40,161 bases of DNA from an uncultured Eubacteriales bacterium (GTDB taxonomy: Bacteria > Bacillota_I > Bacilli_A > RF39 > UBA660), in NCBI GenBank assembly GCA_900321795.1, contig ONXO01000035.1, forward strand, positions 1-40,161, given 5' to 3'. The notes under the pieces were generated by a model. That model searched no databases, was not told the DNA's origin, and saw nothing but the letters and a program-made list of their open reading frames with translations. Both the position numbers and the translations under genes were made by a program. Shown in pieces: positions 8,537 through 37,162 of the stretch. Position 1 is the stretch's first letter. Each line of letters begins with the position of its first letter.

Positions 8537-9412
8537 TTATTTTTTAACGATATTATTTTTTTCTTCAACAGAATAGGTATCTCTTCTAATATTAATATCA
8601 AACACCTTTTTTTCACCATTTAGTGATTCAAGCACAAATTCAGTTTTACCAGATTTCTTAAACTCTGCATGAACCATCCACGCTTCAATACTATCTTCAT
8701 ACTTTATACTTAAATCTCCATATTTGTTATCGTTTAAATAAACTTTATATGTGTCATCAAATTGATAGTTATCTCCACTTATTAATATATCTGTGCTATA
8801 TATAGGTGGATTAATAAAACATAAAACTGATATAACAGCAATTATAATTCCACTTATTATTTCACCAATTATTTTTATTTTCTTATTCTTAAATATGACT
8901 AATGGATAAATAACTAATGTTACTAAACAGAATATAGTAGTTAGTAAATGTCTTGGAAATGAGAACATTGTTTTTGATAAATATCCACCAAATTCTTCTC
9001 CTAGAAGCATTAATATCGGAGTTAATATTAATAGTCCCCACCATTTATCTTTTTTCATGTAATATCCAATAAATCCCATTGGTAAGCATCCAACTGTCCA
9101 CATAAACCAATATCTATAATAAGTTTTAAATAACATGCTACCATTAACAACATCTTGTATTAAATAAACAAGTGGCTGGCTTATCAGAAAGAATACGAAG
9201 CATTTAAGTGCTGAATCTTTAGGTGATTTACTATTCATGATTATAAAAATTCCAAATAAGATCCATACTTCAAAAGTAACACACAAATCACTAAAAGATG
9301 TATCTTTTGCTATAGGTAACATTGCCATTATTGCAGTATAGACTCCGGCAACAATCGCAAATATAATTAACTTTTTCCAAGTTAAATCAATTCCACCAAA
9401 TAATTTTTTCAT
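8537..9412 (-). CDS. Polytopic membrane protein with a C-terminal soluble domain (unknown function)
   Basis: The likely start is ATG at 9412 (GGAGG, 7 nt, ATG), which overlaps the TAA of the upstream protease remnant as TAATG. About 7 TM segments plus a ~90-aa C-terminal domain. Confidence 0.65.
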   Translation of the reverse strand: MKKLFGGIDLTWKKLIIFAIVAGVYTAIMAMLPIAKDTSFSDLCVTFEVWILFGIFIIMNSKSPKDSALKCFVFFLISQPLVYLIQDVVNGSMLFKTYYRYWFMWTVGCLPMGFIGYYMKKDKWWGLLILTPILMLLGEEFGGYLSKTMFSFPRHLLTTIFCLVTLVIYPLVIFKNKKIKIIGEIISGIIIAVISVLCFINPPIYSTDILISGDNYQFDDTYKVYLNDNKYGDLSIKYEDSIEAWMVHAEFKKSGKTEFVLESLNGEKKVFDINIRRDTYSVEEKNNIVKK

Positions 9413-9606
9413 TACTTGTTCCTCCAATCATTAATGTTATTTTGAACAATATCACAAGGAATCATATATCCAACTTTATAATGTCCCAACAATGTAAATG
9501 ATCCTGCAATATTTATACCTGCTATTTTCATATTTTCAGTTAATGCAACTCCACCACTATTACCTTGCTGCATATACGCAAAAATTGTATCCAAGAGAAA
9601 ACTCAC
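9412..9606 (-). pseudogene. C-terminal remnant of a trypsin-like (S1) serine protease
   Basis: Contains the active-site serine motif GNSGG but lacks the upstream His/Asp part. The ORF only opens at a GTG inside the module-A hairpin, and stop codons lie upstream. Confidence 0.6.
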
Positions 9607-9809
9607 AAACCCTTATATTTACTGGGCTCACGAGCATTATTTACCATGACATTTCTTATATTTCTTACCACTGCCACATGGATGCGATATTTCAAGCTTC
9701 TGAGACTATAAAACTCTTTAAAACCCTTATAAAACCTCACAAATTGGCTTTTGAGAGCTTTTGAGAGCGTCCAAGAACTCTACCAAAGCGTATGTAAAAA
9801 CGTATGTAG
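9601..9809 (-). repeat. Cassette-boundary module, copy A (divergent, outer)
   Basis: Parts in coordinate order: an interrupted hairpin (9601-9634); the SEC-C tail PCGSGKKYKKCHGK-stop (9637-9681); the core CCACTGCCACATGG (9668-9681); a unique arm with the tandem CTTTTGAGAG x2; then CGTATGTAAAAACGTATGTAG (9789-9809). Confidence 0.85.
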
Positions 9810-9825
9810 AATTTAATTTTTAATA

Positions 9826-10308
9826 CTATAAGTTTAATAGTTCTTTTTTCTTTTGATCAAATTCTTCTTGGCTAATTGCACCCATGTCAAGTAATTCTTT
9901 TAACTCTTTAACTTGCTCGATTGGAGTCTTAACATTTTGAGCAATCGTATTTCCACTATTTTGGTTGGCATTAAATTCTTCAATATAATTTTTAATTTCC
10001 TCAGCATTAGCATTAGCATTTTTTGGATCAAGATTAAATGTAACTGTATTCTCATCTTTTAACGCATCTCTTAAACCATTTTTGCTTTCTCTACTACCAG
10101 ATAATACAAATTGAATATATCCAGCAGTCATACCGCATTTTTTCAATTGCACAGCTGATATTTGATTCAATAAAATAGTTTTTTCACCTTTCAATCCAAA
10201 ATTCATAAAAGATCTAACACCTTTTCTAATAATTGATAGTTTGTTACCATCAATTATTACTATTGTATTTCCTGTACCTAAATTTTTAAATAAATATTCT
10301 TTTTTCAT
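9826..10308 (-). CDS. bPH (YokE/DUF4429-like) domain protein with a C-terminal SHOCT domain
   Basis: 160 aa. The C-terminus VKELKELLDMGAISQEEFDQKKKELL is a typical SHOCT motif. The N-terminal ~100 aa look like a bacterial PH-like domain. Confidence 0.7.
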   Translation of the reverse strand: MKKEYLFKNLGTGNTIVIIDGNKLSIIRKGVRSFMNFGLKGEKTILLNQISAVQLKKCGMTAGYIQFVLSGSRESKNGLRDALKDENTVTFNLDPKNANANAEEIKNYIEEFNANQNSGNTIAQNVKTPIEQVKELKELLDMGAISQEEFDQKKKELLNL

Positions 10309-10368
10309 AACATCAACTCCTATATTAATTATACCATATTTTTCCTATTTTTCATATGCCAACAATAA

Positions 10369-10941
10369 TTACATGAATTCATGTATTATCTCATCAAATT
10401 CACGTATATCATTTCTGATTTTTTCAAGATTATACTCTTTATCACGTTTAAAATATAAATCATTATTTTTATCAATTGGATACCTAAAGCGATATGAATC
10501 ATTATCAATTAAAATAAATTTTTTTACAATCCCATCTAAAGTTTCTACAAAATAATATGAATCTTCACCATAGTAATCCGACTCCTCTTCCATTAATTTT
10601 TGCTTAAGCCCAGGCCAAATTTCACTAAGTCTATGATTACTAAGTAAATTAACTTTCATATCATAGTATTTTTTATTATTAATGTCAAAATATACGTACA
10701 TAGCTTTTATTATTAACTCTAAATAATGGCGGAATAAAAACATGACCGGATATATGTTATACTCTTCCTCAAGTTTTATGCTTTCTATTCTAAATCCTTC
10801 CATCAAAGATGACAACTGCGAATATCTGTTATCATCTAGCAATACATCAGCCAAAATCATGCCCGAATTATAATATCCTGCAGCATAAGTAAAAAGTATT
10901 TCTTTATTACCATTATGTGAAATGTGAATCATTTTTGTCAT
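10369..10941 (-). CDS. Hypothetical 190-aa helical protein (cassette gene, no confident family)
   Basis: Clean ORF with a GGTGG Shine-Dalgarno. Conserved-looking patches are FRHYLELIIKA, SNHRLSEIW and SYRFRYP. Confidence 0.6.
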   Translation of the reverse strand: MTKMIHISHNGNKEILFTYAAGYYNSGMILADVLLDDNRYSQLSSLMEGFRIESIKLEEEYNIYPVMFLFRHYLELIIKAMYVYFDINNKKYYDMKVNLLSNHRLSEIWPGLKQKLMEEESDYYGEDSYYFVETLDGIVKKFILIDNDSYRFRYPIDKNNDLYFKRDKEYNLEKIRNDIREFDEIIHEFM

Positions 10942-11062
10942 AAAACCACCTATTAATATTATATCATAAACTTTTATAGTCCTTGTCTTGTACTGTAGGG
11001 ACAGTGATCATTTTCTTCGTAAAACCTTATAAATAAAGGCTTTATTAGGCTCTAAATAATGG

Positions 11063-11347
11063 CTACATACGTTTTACATACGTATATAAAACGTATGTAG
11101 AGGCACCTTTTGAAGAAATATTACAACTTTTTAGAAAAAGAAAAAGCCCGGAAATTCTTATATTTCCGGGCTTTGTGAACTATTTACCACAACACTGTTT
11201 ATATTTTTTACCACTGCCACATGGTGTAGAAACTGCAATTTTTCTGCAATTTTTACAAAATTTTTGTTGAAATTACAAAGAACTTGTAAAATCTACAACT
11301 TATTTTTGCTTCGGATGCATTACAAAACGTATGCAAAAACGTATCTA
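11063..11347 (-). repeat. Cassette-boundary module, copy B (full length, inner)
   Basis: Parts in coordinate order: the inverted pair CTACATACGTTTT...AAAACGTATGTAG (11063-11100); ATTACAAC; the terminator; the SEC-C remnant FQQKFCKNCRKIAVSTPCGSGKKYKQCCGK-stop (11180-11272, no start codon); the core at 11211-11224; phased TGCAA/TACAA boxes; then ACGTATGCAAAAACGTATCTA (11327-11347). Confidence 0.9.
11133..11171 (-). terminator. Strong intrinsic terminator inside module B
   Basis: Perfect 10-bp stem GCCCGGAAAT/ATTTCCGGGC (11146-11155 and 11162-11171), followed on the minus strand by TTTTTCTTTTTCT. Confidence 0.8.
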
Positions 11348-11385
11348 ATTTTCAAAATTTAAAATTTTTAAATTTTTTTTGTATA

Positions 11386-12477
11386 TTAGCAACAAGTTTC
11401 AAATGTAGCAGATGTTTCACCAGACGTTGTTTTTCCGTTTGCATCAGTTATTGTATAGGTTGCCGTATAATTTCCAGCAACAAAATTTAAAAATAAAGTA
11501 GTTGCATATACGTTCTTTTCTAATGGAGATCCTGTTCTTGCCACAACATTACCATCTCTATATAAAGTATATTCAACTTTATAAGGCTTACTACCACCAG
11601 AATGTTGTATTGATAAAACTACTTGTTCAGTACAATTACTTCCTTTGCAAGAACGTTGAGTAGTTATTCTAGCACTAGCAGTTAATGGCTCGCCGGATTC
11701 AATAGGTTTCTTTTTTAATTCATATGTTTTAGTACCTGTTTTAGTAGTTCCACTTGAATCCTTAACTTCATAATTTAATGTATAAGTACCATCATATAAT
11801 GAACTACCAGAAAACGCTACAGAATTTGTATGCACTTCTTTGCTTACTCCAGCAGGCTCACTTAATCTTAATGTATAAGTATAATTTCCAGTACCACCGG
11901 AAACAGAAACACTTCCAGTAATAGAATAAATACAACTAGAATTGATACACGAAGAATTTTCTGTAATTTGTGGCGTAACAACAAGTTCTGATATTGTAGT
12001 ATTTGTATTTGATCCTGTATTTGTGTTTGATTCAGTATTTGTATTTGATCCTGTATTTGTGTTTGATCCTGTATTTGTGTTTGATCCTGTATTTGTGTTT
12101 GATCCTGTATTTGTGTTTGATTCAGTATTTGTGTTTGACTCAGTATTTGTATTTAATCCTGTATTTGGGTTTAATCCTGTATTAGATTCATTATCTTTAT
12201 TTTGTGCATTTGAATTATCATCAGTATTATCTTTCACATCATTTTTAACATCATCATCTTTTTTTGTATCTAAATCGGTAGATGTTTCTTCTTTTGTCTT
12301 TGTATCATCATTTTTAATATTTGTATCTATTTGTGTATTTGAATTCTTTTGTTTAGGCGTACCACCATTTGGTTTATTAAGCATTAATACTCCAACAATA
12401 GTAGCGACAGTAATAGTTAACATAACTGGTATAATAATCTTAACATTGCTTAAAAACCATTTTATTATTTTATTCAT
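11386..12477 (-). CDS. Membrane-anchored surface protein: N-terminal TM, N/T/S/G hexapeptide repeat tract, two SprB/HYR-like Ig-fold repeats
   Basis: 363 aa with about 10 NTNTGS/NTNTES units. Two ~95-aa repeats carry the motifs SGGTGNYTYTL / SGGSKPYKVEYTL and GTYTLNYEVKD / GNYTATYTITD. The protein ends in CC. Confidence 0.7.
   Translation of the reverse strand: MNKIIKWFLSNVKIIIPVMLTITVATIVGVLMLNKPNGGTPKQKNSNTQIDTNIKNDDTKTKEETSTDLDTKKDDDVKNDVKDNTDDNSNAQNKDNESNTGLNPNTGLNTNTESNTNTESNTNTGSNTNTGSNTNTGSNTNTGSNTNTESNTNTGSNTNTTISELVVTPQITENSSCINSSCIYSITGSVSVSGGTGNYTYTLRLSEPAGVSKEVHTNSVAFSGSSLYDGTYTLNYEVKDSSGTTKTGTKTYELKKKPIESGEPLTASARITTQRSCKGSNCTEQVVLSIQHSGGSKPYKVEYTLYRDGNVVARTGSPLEKNVYATTLFLNFVAGNYTATYTITDANGKTTSGETSATFETCC
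11999..12178. repeat. Ten tandem 18-bp units (GTATTTGTGTTTGATCCT and variants) inside the 363-aa CDS
   Basis: Read directly: the units start at 11999 and recur every 18 bp (12017, 12035 and so on) up to 12161. The variants are GATTCA, GACTCA and AATCCT. They are in frame (6 aa per unit). Confidence 0.95.
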
Positions 12478-12570
12478 ATTTTCACTCCTTTTATTTCTTA
12501 CATATAATTATAACATAATTTAATAATTTATTATAAATACATTTTATATTAATCATTATTTTTCAAAAAT

Positions 12571-12833
12571 AAAAACGTATGTAGAGGGCACTTTTTGAAG
12601 AAAAATTACAACTTTTTAGAAAAAGAAAAAGCCTCGCAATCCCTTTATTTATGGGACTTTACGAGACTATTTGCCATGACAGTTTTTATACTTCAATCCA
12701 CTGCCACATGGTGTAAAATCTACAATTTTACTACAATATTTACAATTTTTTTGTTGAAATTACAAATATCTTATAAATATTACAACTTATTATTTCTTTA
12801 GAATTACAACTAAACGTATGTAAAAACGTATTT
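12571..12833 (-). repeat. Cassette-boundary module, copy C (full length, inner)
   Basis: Parts in coordinate order: ACGTATGTAG (12575-12584); ATTACAAC; an imperfect hairpin plus T-run (about 12620-12666); the SEC-C remnant FQQKNCKYCSKIVDFTPCGSGLKYKNCHGK-stop (12667-12759, no start codon); the core at 12698-12711; six phased TACAA boxes; then ACGTATGTAAAAACGTATTT (12814-12833). Confidence 0.9.
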
Positions 12834-12844
12834 ATTAAAATCTT

Positions 12845-13459
12845 TTATTTAATATCAAATTCTGCATAAATAGTATATGCTTGTGAATCTGGACTCTTTG
12901 ATTTTCTTAAGTCACTTTTAACTAATCTGTATGTTCCACTTTTTAATTCGCCATATCCTAAAGACCAATCAACAATAAACTCTTTCTCTTCATGTGCTTT
13001 CAAAGAATAAACTATTGAATTCCATGTTAATGGTTCTCCTGTCAATGTATCGATTTCTTTCTATGCTTGATTTTCAAACTTTTCAATAGTATATGTTGGA
13101 CCATAAGCATATTCTTCATCTGTAGTGTTTTTTATTATAAATGACGCTCCTTTTGTTGTTCTTGTATCTTCTTTAATTTCTATTAAAACACTACCAACAT
13201 TTTTTTGCGCTGGACTTTCATCATGTTTTAATCTTTCATCAGCATTTATATTTCCACCAACTCTAATTCCTAAAATTTTAAGTTCCCATCCATCTTCATA
13301 ACCTGTAAATGAAATTTCAGTTGGTGTATGAACTATAGTATACTTATACAAAATAGCTTTATATTCTGTAACACCATTTTTCCAATGAGTAGGTATTGGT
13401 ATTAACATTAAAACAAAAATCACAATTGCAACAATAATTAATATTTTTTTCTTTTTCAT
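12845..13459 (-). pseudogene. Secreted or membrane-anchored Ig-like beta-sandwich protein interrupted by one in-frame TAG
   Basis: The 132-aa and 66-aa ORFs share one frame (13459-13045 = 414 nt) and are split only by TAG at 13061-13063 (...FENQA-stop-KEIDTLTGEPLTW...). Joined, they would give about 204 aa. Confidence 0.65.
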
Positions 13460-13495
13460 ACAAGCACCTCTATAATCATTATATCATATATGTGA

Positions 13496-14971
13496 TTATT
13501 CAAACAAGTCGAAGCCTCTCTTTGTAACTTTAAATACTTCACCTTTATAATTTGTACCTCTAATATAATCATTATTAACTAATAATTCCATAGAATACTC
13601 CATATTTGCTTCCTCTTTGGCATTAGCTGGTGTAAAAGTTTTAGTACCACATTGGATAGTTAGTCCTATTATTGTTTTTGATTTAATAATTATTCCATCA
13701 CCATTTACTGCATTTTGTAGCATATATAAAGCGAGTTCATTCAATCCATTTTCCATAATTGTATTATTATATTTTATAATACTTTTATTTTTTGATTCAT
13801 CAATATTAGCCATTTCTTTCACATCTTCAATTATTTCTGAAACGTTATCATATCTATTACTATGATTTCTATCGACACATTTTTTAACAATATTTGAAAT
13901 TGCATTATTAGTTAATTGTAAGCTTTGTTTCCCAGTAAAAATATAAAACAAAATAATACCTATAACATATATTTCATTTTTAATATTATAATTTTTAAAA
14001 TCAACTAATGTATCGTCAATTATTGTTCCTTTTATTTCAGAACCAGTTGATGTTAGATCAGAATTTTTTTCTTTAATTAGGCCAAAATCAGAAACCTTAA
14101 TAGAAATTAAATCATCATCGTATTGCTTGATTAAAATATTATTGAAACTTATATCTCTATGCAATATCTCTTTAGAATGTAAATATTGAATTGCTTTTAA
14201 GAATTGTAATGCAATACTTTTTCTTTTATTAAAATTTAATTTTTCTTTATTTCCATTATATAATTCATAATACTTTTTAAGTGTAAAATCACAATATTCC
14301 ATAACATATGCATCATCATCTTCTAAATATTTATATGCTTTTAGAAGATATGGATTATTTAACTTATTTAAAAAATCAAATTCCTTTTTAAATCTTCCAA
14401 GCTCTTTATCGGTAAATTCCTTCTTTAATTTCTTATATGCATAAAATTCGTTATAAAACTCATCTTTATACCTATAAACATCCGCATATGCACCGCTACC
14501 AATTATTTTAGTTTTAAAATTTGTTTTATATGTATTTGAATTTACCGTTATTTCATTATTCATATTGAAAATTGTATCATATTTTATTAGATTAAATCTT
14601 TTATAATCATTTGGAATTGTACTACCACCAGATGATGATAAAAAACTATCACAATATTTTAAAAACGCTTCATAATCTGTATTAACCGAAAAAGCCAAAT
14701 TGGTATTCTTTAACATTAGTTTTAATTCGTTAATTGTTTCAATTAAAAAAATAAGGCTTCTGCTTTCATCAGCATTAAAATGATGATTAGTTTTACTCTT
14801 ATCATTCATAAAGCCAATTAAACTATTTAAATTTTGATGTAAAAATGAAAAAATATTTTTAACTCTTTTATCATAGTTATTATATAAATCTAAATATAAT
14901 TTTGAAAAGTTAAAATTTGCAAGTTCATCGCTTAATATATTATTTAGTGCTAAATCGATATTTTCTACCAT
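13496..14971 (-). CDS. Hanks-type Ser/Thr protein kinase domain flanked by unknown N-terminal (~150 aa) and C-terminal (~100 aa) domains
   Basis: Catalytic motifs present: GSGAYADV (G-loop), AYKKL (Lys), HRDISFNN and DFG. The likely start is ATG at 14971 (GGTGG upstream). No TM segment or signal peptide. Confidence 0.8.
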   Translation of the reverse strand: MVENIDLALNNILSDELANFNFSKLYLDLYNNYDKRVKNIFSFLHQNLNSLIGFMNDKSKTNHHFNADESRSLIFLIETINELKLMLKNTNLAFSVNTDYEAFLKYCDSFLSSSGGSTIPNDYKRFNLIKYDTIFNMNNEITVNSNTYKTNFKTKIIGSGAYADVYRYKDEFYNEFYAYKKLKKEFTDKELGRFKKEFDFLNKLNNPYLLKAYKYLEDDDAYVMEYCDFTLKKYYELYNGNKEKLNFNKRKSIALQFLKAIQYLHSKEILHRDISFNNILIKQYDDDLISIKVSDFGLIKEKNSDLTSTGSEIKGTIIDDTLVDFKNYNIKNEIYVIGIILFYIFTGKQSLQLTNNAISNIVKKCVDRNHSNRYDNVSEIIEDVKEMANIDESKNKSIIKYNNTIMENGLNELALYMLQNAVNGDGIIIKSKTIIGLTIQCGTKTFTPANAKEEANMEYSMELLVNNDYIRGTNYKGEVFKVTKRGFDLFE

Positions 14972-15040
14972 GTAACCACCCAATTAATATTATATCATAA
15001 TAAACCTAAATAACCTTGAATTTGCCTCAAATCCACATAA

Positions 15041-15191
15041 AAAAACGTATGTAAAACGTATGTAGAGGCACTTTTTTGAAAAAAATTACAACTTTTTAGG
15101 AAAAGAAAAAGCCTCGCAATCCCTTTATTTACGGGGCTTTACGAGACTATTTACCATGACAGTTTTTATACTTCAATCCGCTGCCACATGG
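15041..15191 (-). repeat. Cassette-boundary module, copy D (outer, truncated exactly at the core)
   Basis: Parts in coordinate order: ACGTATGTAAAACGTATGTAG (15045-15065); ATTACAAC; hairpin plus T-run; the SEC-C tail PCGSGLKYKNCHGK-stop (15147-15191); and the core CCGCTGCCACATGG (15178-15191). It is about 94% identical to copy C up to the core and unrelated beyond it. Confidence 0.9.
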
Positions 15192-15270
15192 GTACAAAGC
15201 ACGATTTAAAATCATAGAATTGATAGTTTTTAATTATATTGCTAAGGCTACTATCTATTTTCACATTAAC

Positions 15271-16029
15271 TTAAACTGCTGTGTATCCTCCATCTACTGG
15301 AAGTATTATTCCCGTTACGTAACTAGCTTCTTCACTTGCTAAGAATATGGCAGCCGCATTTAGTTCACCTTCTTGGCCATATCTACCCATCGGCACATGG
15401 CTTTTAGCAAATTCTTGAAACTTTGGTGTATCTAAAACTGCTGTTGTAAGCTCTGTATAAAAGTATCCCGGACAAATGCAATTAACCGTAATTCCCACTT
15501 TTGCTAGTTCAGCTGCCGCTGCTCTTGTAAAGTTAACAACTCCTCCTTTGCTTGAGTGATAAGCAATTGTTGGTATTTCACTATTTCCTACCATTCCATA
15601 CATTGATGCTATGTTTATAATTCTTCCATAATGATTTTTTTTCATTATGTTTGCAAATGTTCTTGTCATTTTAAATACACTAGTTAGGTCAGTATTTATT
15701 GTAAAATCCCATTCTTCATCTTCCATCTCTAATACACCTTTGTCTTTTGAAGAACCCGCACAATTGACTAAGATATCGACTTTTCCAAAAACTTTCTCTA
15801 CTTTTCTTGCTGCTTCATTTATTTCTTCAGTAGAAGTTACATCACATTTGATAGCTAAAGCTTTTACTCCAATTTTCTCTATGTCTATTCTTAATTCTTC
15901 AAGCTTTTCAATTCTTCTTGCAATTAATGCTACGTCTGCTCCAGCACGAGCAAAACCTAAAGCCATTTGTTTTCCTAGTCCACTACTTGCGCCAGACACA
16001 ACTGCTACTCTTCCTTCTAAATCAAACAT
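15271..16029 (-). CDS. Short-chain dehydrogenase/reductase (FabG / gluconate-5-dehydrogenase-like)
   Basis: 252 aa. Has the cofactor motif VSGASSGLG, NCAG, and the catalytic Y-x3-K (YHSSK). Confidence 0.85.
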   Translation of the reverse strand: MFDLEGRVAVVSGASSGLGKQMALGFARAGADVALIARRIEKLEELRIDIEKIGVKALAIKCDVTSTEEINEAARKVEKVFGKVDILVNCAGSSKDKGVLEMEDEEWDFTINTDLTSVFKMTRTFANIMKKNHYGRIINIASMYGMVGNSEIPTIAYHSSKGGVVNFTRAAAAELAKVGITVNCICPGYFYTELTTAVLDTPKFQEFAKSHVPMGRYGQEGELNAAAIFLASEEASYVTGIILPVDGGYTAV

Positions 16030-34622: not shown

Positions 34623-34666
34623 GATTAAAAAAGAAATTACTTTTCTAAACTTTCTAGTAATTTCTT
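34623..34666 (-). terminator. Intrinsic terminator overlapping the valS stop codon
   Basis: Stem AAGAAATTAC/GTAATTTCTT (34631-34640 and 34657-34666), followed by a T-run on the minus strand. The 5' arm encodes the last valS codons. Confidence 0.6.
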
Positions 34667-37162
34667 TTCTTCTTCTAGTTTCTTCTTTTCTTCTTCTACA
34701 AGACTAGCTGGCGCTTTACTTACAAATCCCTGATTAGATAGTAGGCCTTCACGTTTTTTTATGCTCATCTTTAATCCTTCTATTTGCTTTAGAATTAAAG
34801 CTTTATCTTCTTCAGTTACTTCTTTTTCATAATAAATAGTAGCTTTAAATCTTCCAGCTTGAACATTATAACTTGTGATATCTAATGCTTCAGTAACTAA
34901 ATTATCTTGAATTTTAAGCATTTTATTAATTAATGTGTAGTCTTCATTTGTTTCAAGTTTTACTTTTGCATCTTTACTTATGCCATTTTCTTGCTTAACA
35001 TTTCTAAATGCAGCTATAAAACTTATTGTTTCTTCTATTAAAGCTTCTTCATTTTCAAAGTTAAAATCTTTATTAACTATAGGATAAGAACTTATCATAA
35101 TATTTTCTGCATCTTTAATAGGAAGCATATCATATATTTCATCAGTTACATAAGGCATGAATGGATGAAGCATTTTTAAAATAGCATTTATTGTGTAGCA
35201 AAGTGTAGATTTAGTTGAAACATTACCCTGACTAAACTTACTCATTTCTATATATGAATCGCAGAAGTCTTCCCATATAAAATTATATAATTCATTTCCA
35301 GCATTATTAAATTCATATTTTTCCATTGAATCAGTAACACTTTTAATAACTTTATTTAGCTTATTTAGTATCCATTTATCTTTATCATCTATTTGGCTAA
35401 AATTATACTCTTTTAAATCTTCGATATTCATTAAACAGAATCTAGATGCATTCCATAATTTATTAATGAAGTTCCAAGTGCTTTTAACCTTTTCTTCATC
35501 ATATCTCAAATCTTGTCCTTGTGCAGTAGAAGTTGTTAAGAAATATCTAAGTGCATCACATCCATATTCTTCAATAACATCCATTGGGTCTACTCCATTA
35601 CCTAGACTCTTAGACATTTTTCTTCCTTCTTTGTCACGAATAAGTCCATGTATTAAACAGTCTTTAAATGGACGTGTTTCAGTGAAATGAAGTCCTTGGA
35701 AAGTCATTCTATTTACCCAGAATGGTATAATATCATAACCAGTAACTAATACATTATTAGGATAATACCTATCAAGTAAATCTGTTTTTTCTGGCCAACC
35801 TAAAGTGCTTAATGGCCAAAGGGCACTGCTAAACCAAGTGTCTAGCACGTCTTCATCTTGTACCCAGCCCTCGCCTTCAGGAGCATTAACTCCAACATAA
35901 ACTTCTTCACCTTTATACCAAGCAGGAATCCTGTGTCCCCACCAAAGTTGTCTAGAAATACACCAGTCATATGTTATTTCCATCCAGTGATTCATTATCT
36001 TTTCAAATCTTTCAGGTACAAAATTAACTTTAGCATTCTTATTCTTCTGATTTTCAAGCACTCTATCCGCAAGTGGTCTCATCTTAACAAACCACTGCTT
36101 AGAAAGATATGGCTCAACCATAACGCCTGATCTTTGTGAATGTCCAACATTATGTGTTATCTCTTCTATACTTATTAATAAACCAGATTCTTCCAAATCT
36201 TTAACAAGGGATTTTCTTGCCTCAAATCTGTCCATTCCTGCATATTTAAGAGCATTTTCATTCATCGTGCCATCTGGATTAATAACAATTATTCTTTCTA
36301 AGTTATGTCTATTTCCTACTTCAAAGTCATTAGGATCGTGTGCAGGTGTAATTTTAACAACACCTGTTCCAAATTCAGGGTCAGCGTGTTCATCTCCTAC
36401 AATAGGAATTAATTTATTAACAATAGGAAGAACAACATTTTTACCAATTAAATGATTGTATCTTGTGTCTTCAGGATTAACAGCAACTGCAGTATCTCCA
36501 AATAGAGTTTCAGGTCTAGTTGTAGCTACTTCTAAATACTCATCAGTTCCTTCAATAAAATACTTAATATGATAAAAAGCACCTGGAACATCTTTGTATT
36601 CAACCTCTTCATTAGAAAGAGCAGTCATAGCTTCAGGATCCCAGTTTATTATTCTCTCTCCTCTATATATTAAGCCCTCATTATATAGTTTAACAAATAC
36701 TTCTTTAACTGCATTAGAAAGTCCTTCATCCAAAGTAAATCTTTCTTTAGTATAGTCTAGTGAAAGTCCCATTTTAGCCCATTGTTTGTGAATGTTTTCA
36801 GCATATTCTCTCTTCCACTCCCAAGCTACTTTAAGCCACTCTTCTCTATCCATACTTCTTGGATTTATACCTTCACTTCTTAGTTTAGCATCAATTTTAG
36901 CTTGTGTTGCTATTCCAGCATGGTCCATCCCTGGAACCCATAAAGCATCAAAGCCTTGCATTCTTTTAAATCTAATGATTATATCTTGAAGTGTTGTATC
37001 CCAAGCATGTCCTAAATGAAGTTTACCTGTTACATTAGGTGGTGGAATAACTATGCTATATGGCTTCTTAGAAGTGTCTCCACTTTCAAAATATTTATTT
37101 TTAAGCCACTTTTCATATTTTCCTTCTTCAACTATTTTGTGATTATACTTAGTATCTAACAT
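34637..37162 (-). CDS. valS: Valine--tRNA ligase
   Basis: 841 aa. Has [14 protein letters not shown] (HIGH), KMSKSLGN, an editing domain and a C-terminal coiled coil. Confidence 0.95.

Follow-up and report, generated by a model that had tools for sequence, protein, structure and literature searches.

Three cassettes on a repeated 14-bp core

The window (the whole stretch of DNA analysed, 40,161 nt) contains a 5.9-kb block flanked by an SDR gene on one side and a membrane-protein gene on the other, and truncated at both ends. All features located below are on the minus strand, and the block is described in this, its coding, orientation. It is organised around a 14-bp sequence, CCACTGCCACATGG, present in 4 copies against 0 expected by chance. 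Three copies are exact (A, 9668–9681; B, 11211–11224; C, 12698–12711) and the fourth has one mismatch (D, 15178–15191; CCATGTGGCAGCGG on the coding strand). No further match at up to 2 mismatches occurred in the window, and 0 were found in 100 shuffles. The positions of an earlier, sequence-only reading of this DNA, which had reported four copies with a mismatch in one of them, were reproduced exactly. Copy D is the first junction of the array, C joins cassette 3 to cassette 2, B joins cassette 2 to cassette 1, and A is the last junction.

On the coding strand the 14-mer encodes P-C-G-S-G of a SEC-C zinc-finger tail. The remaining codons of the tail come next, then the stop and a terminator hairpin. 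The four orphan tails read PCGSGLKYKNCHGK up to the stop codon at D (15147–15191) and at C (12667–12711), PCGSGKKYKQCCGK at B (11180–11224) and PCGSGKKYKKCHGK at A (9637–9681); only 8 in-frame codons separate the nearest possible start codon from the core in tail D. Hairpins with a T run follow tail D (approximately 15104–15146, −15.2 kcal/mol) and tail C (approximately 12624–12666, −16.5 kcal/mol). Tail B is followed by a terminator hairpin of 13 pairs and then TTCTTTTT (11143–11174), and tail A by a hairpin at the end of its P′ arm (approximately 9600–9635, −12.9 kcal/mol). The 14-bp core itself has no dyad symmetry; when inverted core-type sites on either side of a 6–8 bp overlap region were sought, a short dyad, ACCA...TGGT around TGTGGCAG, was weakly visible in some copies.

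Between the cores lie three cassettes. Cassette 3 (12712–15177, 2,466 nt) carries a Ser/Thr kinase gene (13496–14983) and an interrupted Big_14-like gene (12845–13459), cassette 2 (11225–12697, 1,473 nt) a gene for a 363-aa, repeat-rich, membrane-anchored protein (11386–12477), and cassette 1 (9682–11210, 1,529 nt) genes for a 190-aa protein (10369–10941) and a DUF4429/SHOCT protein (9826–10308). Every cargo gene has a promoter-like motif of the TGnTATAAT type: in cassette 3 the cargo is preceded by TGATATAAT, which resembles an extended −10 (14989–14997), and similar motifs lie in cassette 2 (12507–12515), in cassette 1 (10958–10966) and at the second genes (13478–13486 and 10328–10336). No recombinase gene is encoded in the 40-kb window, secA is absent from it, and the units showed no trace of integration or conjugation genes. 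Like CIMEs and other units of site-specific accretion, the cassettes are att-flanked and lack integration and transfer genes; together they make up a short, displaced array of three small cassettes, each built on the core and none with an integrase.

Homology boundaries and the 3′ end of secA

Copies C and D are 94% identical across 125 nt (12587–12711 versus 15067–15191) and unrelated from the very next base, the first mismatch in the alignment falling at −1; the sequence-only reading had placed the end of this homology at the last base of the core, and rightly. Copies B and C have both arms in common (169 nt, 79% identity), and are attP-like (P arm, core, P′ arm) as that reading had proposed. 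Copy A departs from B and C directly past the core on the P-arm side, as claimed, but it is not armless there: it has a P arm of another family. It is another attP-like junction with both arms, the P′ arm being truncated.

These boundaries were compared pairwise in a census of 71 non-redundant core copies. Where copies shared a P′ arm but had unrelated left flanks, the first difference lay at −1 in 19/21 pairs and at −2 in 2/21. Where they shared a P arm and differed in their P′ arms, it lay at base 15 in 11/28 pairs, at bases 16–27 in 8/28, and at base 45 in one more; the other 8/28 broke at the core wobble bases 3, 9 or 12. The earlier reading had named scattered boundaries in further copies as the observation that would count against it, and in the 71 copies they were not scattered. 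An identical core at the junctions with homology breaking there is a mark of a lambda-type att site, and here the left break fell at −1 in 19/21 pairs and the right one at base 15 or later in 20/28.

Related loci were retrieved with a pattern consisting of the core, 100–128 nt and ACATACGTTTT, which gave 17 genome and 28 metagenome stretches. As the pattern demands the ACATACGTTTT box, these 45 loci are a biased sample; all are contigs from gut MAGs or metagenomes, open to misassembly at repeats, and two of them start exactly at the core. In 10 of the 45, the core closes an ORF of 816–878 codons, one of which was confirmed as SecA with all domains plus SEC-C. Tail-only copies lie downstream of secA (up to 6 cores in 11 kb), in rows of 0.9–3.4 kb cassettes that are each closed by another core and tail. 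In low-GC gut Firmicutes, the element family therefore very probably targets the Pro-Cys-Gly-Ser-Gly codons that lie near the 3′ end of the chromosomal secA gene. That the tail is a secA tail had been missed in the earlier reading. We found no published account, in the literature searched, of the SEC-C codons of secA as an integration target.

An intact PCGSGxKYKxC[CH]G[KR] ORF is retained in 52/54 orphan tails, and their variation is concentrated at third codon positions (entropy 0.22/0.20/0.76 bits), as it is in gene-linked copies. Judging from this pattern, the orphan tails are still under purifying selection. One cassette occurs in both L003 and L026, with 93% identity over the first 1.35 kb and unrelated neighbours on both sides. 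Degenerate copies are found elsewhere, in L008, L018, L028 and L032.

The outer ends of the window array are of a different kind. Upstream of core D, the 79 nt that reach to the SDR stop codon (15192–15270) are neither secA nor a recognisable P arm, and had no relatives in any other locus compared. On the tail side of copy A, the SEC-C tail and hairpin are cut off and the P′ arm is deleted into the C-terminal fragment of a trypsin-like protease gene (9412–9606), which is fused to the truncated arm and forms the distal edge of the block. The sequence-only reading had taken the outer copies for attL and attR of a target at this locus, a view that fails here: the window has neither secA nor a recombinase gene, the D flank is an orphan and A is attP-like. 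It had also named an empty site without the 14-mer in relatives as an observation that would count against it, and such a site was seen. L048/L049, the closest relative found, has the two flanking genes adjacent, with a homologue of the membrane-protein gene 15 bp past the SDR gene and no 14-mer between them. Because the outer copies are not attL or attR and L048/L049 lack the 14-mer, the array was probably assembled elsewhere and not at its present locus, and it most likely arrived or was relocated by a non-site-specific event. It shows some signs of decay, namely one interrupted cargo gene, the truncated P′ arm of copy A and the orphan outer flank of D.

Arm boxes and adjoining recombinases

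The P arms of cassettes 3 (12712–12834) and 2 (11225–11347) belong to one family, termed T-type for its TTGTAA/TTGTAG boxes, which was found in 9 copies on other contigs; identity among T-type arms is 0.94 and drops to background beyond about −140. The P arm of cassette 1 (9682–9808) is of a second family with CTCTCAAAAG and GTTTTATA repeats, and its last 36 nt (at copy A) recur unchanged in L003:3131 and L039:2440. One and the same base forms the end of the P arm in at least eight unrelated families. Compared with other loci, the window cassettes have in common only the first 126–280 nt and the last ~120–145 nt. Thus, across loci the arm boundaries are uniform and the cargo is unrelated.

Both arms of the cassettes carry paired 7-nt boxes about 105–130 nt from the core. 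In cassette 3 these are two ACATACG boxes in the P′ arm (15046–15063, at +114/+125 relative to the core), which may be arm-type sites for an integrase, and AAATACG and ACATACG in the P arm (12815–12833, −115/−103). Cassette 2 has a single ACATACG in its P′ arm (12576–12582), and AGATACG and GCATACG in its P arm (11328–11347). In cassette 1 the P′ boxes form a 38-nt palindrome of ACATACGT boxes (11063–11100), and the P arm has two ACATACG boxes (9789–9808, −119/−107). The ACATACGT box was observed 8 times in the window versus 0.38 expected, always within 9800–15063.

Box type was matched within a cassette, that is, between the P′ arm after one core and the P arm before the next, in 20/22 cases, compared to 6/20 across the two arms of one junction (Fisher p = 8e-5; 0/10,000 permutations reached the observed count). 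The match held for 7/8 cassettes with boxes other than ACATACG, and at least seven box classes occur on the one core. Because box type matches within cassettes and not across junctions, the coherent unit is the cassette. The paired boxes would then be the arm-type sites of a lambda-type tyrosine integrase.

Phage_integrase proteins lie next to the core in L027, L020 and L034. The integrases of L020 and L034 match the Arm-DNA-bind_4 domain, L020 just under the Pfam cut-off, and those of the L027 type have the catalytic R..HxxR..H..Y residues. Two independent integrase homologues, P0141 and P0128, are tail-to-tail with secA, 125–131 bp from its stop, and their loci have the same core with their own box pairs, AGATACG and ATCTACA. 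In all, the core has a tyrosine integrase beside it at no fewer than five independent loci (L027, L020, L034, L058 and L060), and the large relatives at the secA site look prophage-like. The integrase-less cassettes are, we infer, substrates of a tyrosine integrase working in trans. It may not be the sole enzyme using the site, because a large serine recombinase adjoins the same core in L004/L031. There, 420 bp away from the core, lies the gene for a protein of 553/574 aa with Resolvase, Recombinase and Zn_ribbon_recom domains, and the join between the DNA of this element and a typical P′ arm is precisely at core base 1.

Proposed mechanism, alternatives and known systems

From these features of the DNA, CCATGTGGCAGYGG is very probably the common core (the strand-exchange region and its immediate flanks) of the att sites of an integrative-element family. 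This agrees with the sequence-only reading, which took the 14-mer for the shared core at which elements inserted in tandem recombine site-specifically. The crossover, placed there in the Pro-Cys-Gly-Ser codons, would fall within the Pro-Cys-Gly-Ser-Gly codons of the SEC-C tail, with strand exchange presumably inside the 14-mer. Because the boundaries are sharp, the boxes match and tyrosine integrases adjoin the core in relatives, we consider it highly likely that the secA-tail cores, arms and cassettes are lambda-type att sites with miniature integrated elements.

An element would bring an attP made up of a P arm of about 130 nt (from one of many unrelated families), the core and a P′ arm. The P′ arm would re-supply the last 10 codons of secA, the stop codon and the terminator, leaving secA intact after integration. 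A tandem pair of 7-nt boxes on each arm (here ACATACG) would provide the arm-type sites for a lambda-type tyrosine integrase; large, prophage-like members encode such an enzyme beside the P′ arm. The window units would be miniature members of 1.5–2.5 kb with one or two cargo genes and no recombinase, and repeated integration into resident cores could produce the head-to-tail row in which each inner junction is P-core-P′. Excision and integration are here read from comparative anatomy.

Could the cassettes instead be decayed remnants of autonomous prophages or integrative elements, CIME-like and immobile even in trans, stranded as younger elements inserted at secA? The window lacks an integrase, one of its cargo genes is interrupted, the distal arm is cut short, the array is out of place, the degenerate copies in the four loci named above fit such decay, and decay followed by accretion is the accepted route to such tandems (PMC5704250). 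We nevertheless regard this as rather unlikely. No integrase remnant was seen in the window cassettes or the scanned cargo ORFs, both arms with matched box pairs are kept in 20/22 cassettes, and arm boundaries are uniform despite unrelated cargo. Intact tails in 52/54 cases, varying at third positions, would be unexpected for inert relics, and the same cassette occurs with different neighbours on both sides. That a large serine recombinase acts on the core, the paired boxes then being regulatory and not arm sites, is improbable. The L004/L031 protein and the exact junction of its element at core base 1 speak for it, but they represent one element type on two near-identical contigs, against tyrosine integrases at five or more independent loci. 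Moreover, a serine integrase can do without arm sites, yet box type co-varies from one arm of a cassette to the other.

The repeats might also have arisen without site-specific recombination, through homologous recombination or duplication via the conserved SEC-C coding sequence. All copies of the tail are conserved at the protein level, with 40–45 nt of similarity. However, breaks should then be scattered along the tail, whereas they fall at −1 in 19/21 pairs on the left and from base 15 on the right, and the unrelated P-arm families stop at one base; this reading is already disfavoured, and very improbable. Barely credible is a cassette system of the integron (attC/IntI) or Xer/dif-module type, which the rows of small, co-oriented, recombinase-less cassettes superficially resemble. 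There is no attC-like pairing between the arms, the strong hairpins being only terminators and the box palindrome, and no IntI-like gene lies beside the arrays. Xer/dif modules (IMEX, pdif) have a dif-like site of 28–31 bp with two inverted 11-bp arms; no dif-like 28-mer was present, with 0 matches at ≤3 mismatches to the B. subtilis dif consensus. Lambda-like arm boxes are present instead, and the L020/L034 integrases match an arm-binding domain.

The lambda-type reading extends, tentatively, to an integron-like cassette system anchored on the essential secA gene in low-GC gut Firmicutes (Bacilli and Mollicutes-like lineages, Erysipelotrichaceae and some Clostridia). In such a system, which we consider possible, recombinase-less cassettes of 1–3 kb, each with its own promoter-like motif, terminator and full attP arms, would be captured, shuffled and swapped between species in trans by prophage-borne integrases, and the seven or more arm-box classes would be separate compatibility groups on one 14-bp core.

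Several known systems are similar in part. Like the lambda-type att sites of phages, ICEs and IMEs at gene 3′ ends, the secA site has one short core at all junctions and elements that bring a replacement 3′ end and terminator. Boxes are repeated on each arm some 100 nt away from the core, and autonomous members encode an integrase beside the att site (with an arm-binding domain in L020 and L034). The secA site differs in its target, the SEC-C zinc-finger codons of secA, in consisting mostly of 1–3 kb units without integrase, and in having at least seven box classes on one core. In integron arrays, too, small, co-oriented, recombinase-less cassettes with highly diverse cargo are arranged in rows and presumably moved in trans. 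Here, however, IntI, attI and folded attC are absent, the attP sites are lambda-like, being double-stranded and furnished with arm boxes, and every cassette brings a promoter-like motif and a terminator of its own.

According to the review in PMC5704250 (Pavlovic 2004, Bellanger 2011), streptococcal CIMEs are integrase-less and att-flanked, stand in tandem with their relatives where a target gene has its 3′ end, form such tandems by integration into a resident att site, and are described as decayed ICEs or IMEs. Mobilisation in cis by an adjacent ICE also belongs to the definition of a CIME. The secA-tail units share the integrase-less, att-flanked, tandem arrangement at a gene end. Unlike CIMEs, they are uniformly tiny, keep complete matched arms, have promoter-like motifs ahead of their cargo and orphan gene tails that evolve under protein-level constraint, and lack conjugation genes, their large relatives being prophage-like. 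The tycheposons of Prochlorococcus are tyrosine-recombinase elements that target a conserved gene end, stack in tandem with older ones pushed distally, leave partial target copies and carry diverse cargo; they target tRNA genes and usually have their own integrase (bioRxiv 10.1101/2020.12.28.424599). Gene-end integration, tandem piling, partial target copies and diverse cargo recur at secA, but the target is a protein-coding tail and the junction sequences are SEC-C coding tails, most units have no integrase, and the hosts are gut Firmicutes. Tandem accretion of integrative elements is an already known phenomenon, of which the secA-tail array is a variant.

The core and its arms in the window

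The 14-mer core, CCACTGCCACATGG, occurs exactly at 9668-9681, 11211-11224 and 12698-12711 (copies A, B and C) and with one mismatch at 15178-15191 (copy D). No further sites with two or fewer mismatches were found in the 40-kb window, and 100 shuffles gave no matches. All genes in the array region lie on the minus strand, and the structure is described in that orientation. The core then reads CCATGTGGCAGYGG, which encodes Pro-Cys-Gly-Ser-Gly, and the frame then runs on to give xKYKxC(C/H)GK-stop, the C-terminal half of a SEC-C zinc finger. A hairpin follows each of the four tails (-12.9 to -20.2 kcal/mol), with a T run 3' of it at tails B, C and D. The repeat pattern described in the sequence-only reading is confirmed: C and D are 94% identical over 125 nt that end with the core and lose all similarity at the base directly beyond it, B and C are alike on both sides of the core, and A parts from both at the core edge.

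The order of features on the minus strand is as follows. The SDR gene (15271-16029) comes first, then 79 nt of orphan DNA and core D. Cassettes, which run from one core to the next, come after it. Cassette 3 (D to C) carries a Ser/Thr kinase gene (495 aa, 13496-14983) and an interrupted Big_14-like gene (12845-13459), cassette 2 (C to B) a gene for a 363-aa repeat protein (11386-12477), and cassette 1 (B to A) genes for a 190-aa protein (10369-10941) and, just before core A, a DUF4429/SHOCT protein (9826-10308). The tail and hairpin after core A are followed by the 64-aa C-terminal fragment of a trypsin-like protease (9412-9606) and finally by the membrane-protein gene (8537-9427). The protease fragment retains GNSGG, and its stop and the start codon of the gene that follows overlap (TAATG).

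The DNA on either side of the core has a regular make-up. Every core is followed by a P' arm in which the tail and terminator come first, then a GTTGTAAT box (about +85) and, at +112 to +125, one ACATACG box or two. Cores C, B and A are preceded by P arms, each of which opens with two boxes in tandem near -119/-107 (ACGTTTTTACATACG or variants of it). The octamer ACATACGT occurs eight times in the window compared to 0.38 expected, always inside the array. One P' arm subfamily also carries a 38-nt near-perfect palindrome of ACATACGT boxes in both orientations (11063-11100), followed by about 110 more conserved nt that reach the promoter-like motif of the cargo; this subfamily recurs in L003, L007, L016, L020, L022-L026, L039 and L043 of the related loci fetched for comparison. 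The palindrome could be an operator or an extra site for a recombinase or accessory factor. In the T-type P arm (11225-11297 and 12712-12790), TTGTAA/TTGCAG/TTGTAG boxes make up an imperfect inverted repeat of 36 nt with 72% complementarity, where an accessory (Xis/IHF-like) factor may bind.

The interpretation offered in the sequence-only reading, tandem integration with the outer copies as attL and attR, is right in kind but wrong in local detail. In the nearest relatives found, L048 and L049, whose SDR is 88% identical, 15 bp separate the SDR stop from the start of a gene homologous to that of the membrane protein after the array in the window (57% identity over 287 aa). The 14-mer, which that reading expected at the empty site of relatives, is absent between these two genes. 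Compared to this arrangement, window positions 9428-15270 form a 5.9-kb insertion. Its edges are not cores, and the outer copies are therefore not attL and attR of a target here. Core D has a P' arm only, and the 79-nt flank outside it, which may be a shortened P arm, matches no fetched locus; core A is a complete P-core junction whose P' arm breaks off after the hairpin, where it is fused to the 3' protease fragment. Judging by this single, moderately distant pair, assembly of the array probably took place at secA or on some other element, and the block was then moved here. An exact look-up of the SDR protein returned only contigs with the same arrangement. An 83% relative (L050) was rejected as an empty site, having upstream synteny alone in common.

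The secA target and its arrays in related genomes

We scanned a database of one genome per species and the JGI metagenomes for the core followed, after 100-128 nt, by ACATACGTTTT, a pattern that demands one box class and for which about 0.03 chance matches are expected from base counts. The scan yielded 17 stretches from genomes and 28 from metagenomes, from gut and rumen MAGs labelled Bacilli, Erysipelotrichaceae, Mollicutes, Clostridium/Clostridiales and Bacillota, and one Saccharibacteria bin. The whole comparison set consists of contigs from MAGs or metagenomes, which are prone to break or misjoin at repeats. In 10 stretches, the core closes an ORF of 816-878 codons located after hpf; that of L005 has every SecA domain plus SEC-C, and several shorter gene-linked copies are the same secA ORF cut by the contig end. 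Rows of 0.9-3.4 kb cassettes lie 3' of secA, each ended by another core and tail, with six cores within 11 kb in L043. The window itself lacks secA: its only PCGSG strings are the four core copies, and an 841-aa ORF (34637-37162) considered as a possible SecA is ValS. The DUF1186/SEC-C gene of L013 (2512-3357, 281 aa), which is not SecA, is an alternative target gene: the core closes it and the usual P' arm with ACATACG boxes follows.

No report of secA as an attachment site was found in the literature searched, scans of IMG/VR with two repeat patterns gave nothing useful, and the unit itself had no match among deposited phage genomes. Two metagenome contigs (L025 from position 1 and L035 from position 2) start exactly at a core, which suggests either assembly breaks at the repeat or populations that are heterogeneous at the junctions. 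Inside the L011 array (oriented 735-2697), an IS91-like zinc-finger/Y2 transposase-like gene and a 282-aa tyrosine recombinase gene lie on the opposite strand; this pair is probably an unrelated insertion sequence.

Cargo across the arrays was heterogeneous, comprising XRE-type HTH membrane proteins, DUF4379 zinc-finger proteins, NUDIX, GNAT, deaminases, Mrr and NERD nucleases, Ser/Thr kinases matching the PD-T4-6/Stk2 defence models, and a second MetRS. The cassette 3 kinase matches PADLOC models mad6, PD-T4-6 and Stk2 (E 1e-25 to 1e-34), and a second kinase is cargo in another array. The Big_14-like lipoprotein gene has an in-frame stop near 13046-13060 that leaves ORFs of 132 and 66 aa, and is probably a pseudogene inside cassette 3. 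The 363-aa protein of cassette 2 contains 10 copies of an 18-nt tandem repeat (11963-12214, NTGSNT peptide repeats), and a cassette of L020 (oriented 11012-12646) contains a complete extra methionyl-tRNA synthetase (tRNA-synt_1g, E 7e-131). A TGnTATAAT motif (10328-10336, 10958-10966, 12507-12515, 13478-13486 and 14989-14997 in the window) and a GGTGG/GGAGT ribosome-binding site lie ahead of each cargo gene. The longer string TATGATATAAT occurred 40 times in the fetched loci, five of them in L001 and L002, which represent the window's own locus. A sigma-70 consensus scan gave 49 sites compared to 45 expected, which is uninformative in such AT-rich DNA.

Homology boundaries, box matching and candidate recombinases

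To locate the homology boundaries, 79 copies (71 non-redundant) were anchored at the core and all pairs compared. Where P' arms were at least 90% identical and left flanks unrelated, the first difference fell at -1 in 19 of 21 pairs and at -2 in the other two. Where P arms were at least 90% identical and P' arms different, it fell at base 15 in 11 of 28 pairs, at bases 16-27 in eight, at base 45 in one, and at the synonymous core bases 3, 9 or 12 in eight. At least eight mutually unrelated P-arm families and the secA coding sequence share one common end nucleotide. Thus, the shared segment is exactly the 14-mer, and the scatter of boundaries that would have told against the sequence-only reading did not appear among the 71 non-redundant copies.

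Every P-arm family has its own tandem box pair, with a T run between the boxes, at about -105 to -130 (ACATACG, AGATACC, AGATAAG, AGATACG, AGATACA or AGAACCA, called heuristically). The boxes after one core matched those before the next in 20 of 22 cassettes, whereas the two arms at one junction matched in only 6 of 20 (Fisher p = 8e-5; the observed count was reached in 0 of 10,000 permutations). For example, three consecutive cassettes of L043 read AGATACA/AGATACA, AGATAAG/AGATAAG and ACATACG/ACATACG. Since 7 of 8 cassettes with non-ACATACG boxes also matched, the result is independent of the search pattern. The coherent unit is therefore the core-to-core cassette. Such a unit is what would be predicted for an integrating circular element with a P-core-P' site, and it argues against a fixed 'spacer' repeat. 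The window cassettes share with other loci their arms alone, that is, the first 126-280 nt and the last 120-145 nt or so, and identity in the T-type P-arm family (11 copies) falls from 0.94 beside the core to background beyond about -140. One cassette was found both adjoining secA (L003) and in second position (L026), with 93% identity over its first 1.35 kb and unrelated outer sequence on both sides.

Which enzymes might act on these sites? No recombinase gene is present in the small cassettes or anywhere in the window. In L027, a 384-aa Phage_integrase gene ends directly past the ACATACG boxes of the secA-proximal P' arm, and phage-type genes then follow. A homologue (57% identical) stands at the start of a ~9-kb element of L020 that has AGAACCA boxes in its P arm, and a different, 426-aa integrase lies just upstream of a core in L034. 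Arm-DNA-bind_4 was matched in L020, slightly under the Pfam cut-off, and in L034. The R..HxxR..H..Y residues are retained in the L027 family, for which a database search at E <= 1e-40 gave 1,595 relatives. Three of these were looked up independently: P0141 and P0128 lie tail-to-tail with secA, 125-131 bp from the stop codon, and combine the same core with box pairs of their own (AGATACG and ATCTACA); the remaining one is in tandem with another integrase. Searching IMG/VR with the integrase, as a single sequence and as a profile, gave nothing useful, and deposited phages include no close relative (best identity to any deposited phage integrase, 28%).

On each arm a pair of boxes lies about 110 nt from the core, the box classes vary with the integrase variant, and at least some of the enzymes have an arm-binding domain; together, these features make up a lambda-type attP architecture. 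We infer that a tyrosine integrase would bind the boxes and catalyse the exchange. L004 (2117-4211) and L031 (12269-14426) encode a large serine recombinase at a distance of 420 bp from the same core, and there GC-richer DNA gives way to a typical AT-rich P' arm precisely at base 1 of the core. These junctions may reflect a second recombinase family on the secA-tail core or a chimeric contig; the core may thus be exploited by more than one enzyme family.

Mobility of the cassettes and comparison with known systems

Are the cassettes decayed remnants of formerly autonomous elements, now immobile, or are they still moved? Tails attached to no gene keep an intact reading frame in 52 of 54 cases, and their variation is concentrated at the third codon position (0.22/0.20/0.76 bits), indistinguishable from that of secA-attached tails (0.26/0.21/0.70 bits). 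Inert relics should not show this, and the simplest reading of these patterns is that cassettes become joined to secA often enough to keep the tail under selection. On account of this selection, the uniform architecture and the matched arms, we lean towards the small cassettes being miniature elements mobilised in trans rather than a pure graveyard. Homologous recombination was also considered and rejected, as were integron and Xer/dif readings, since the defining features of those systems are absent.

The arrays mark the last secA codons as an integration hotspot that is widely used among gut Firmicutes, in lineages that are poorly studied and mostly uncultured. Most of the accumulation at the secA tail is a row of tiny uniform cassettes, not prophages or ICEs. 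This explains why such genomes contain many tiny orphan SEC-C ORFs and why their assemblies break. Should the cassettes be moved in trans, they would be functional equivalents, in Gram-positive bacteria, of the cassette arrays of integrons, assembled from lambda-type att sites, with the box classes as a simple, testable specificity code. For engineering these organisms, the site could offer a compact, essential-gene-linked landing pad with ready-made attP arms.

Phage, ICE and IME integration would share the mechanism, entry at a gene 3' end with re-supply of the gene end. The secA-tail arrays correspond to the accretion and CIMEs defined for streptococcal elements (PMC5704250), and they resemble tycheposons, which are stacked at tRNA genes (bioRxiv 10.1101/2020.12.28.424599). 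What sets them apart is that secA SEC-C codons are the target, that the units without an integrase are uniformly very small and bring promoter-like motifs of their own, that several box classes share one core, and that selection on the orphan tails continues.
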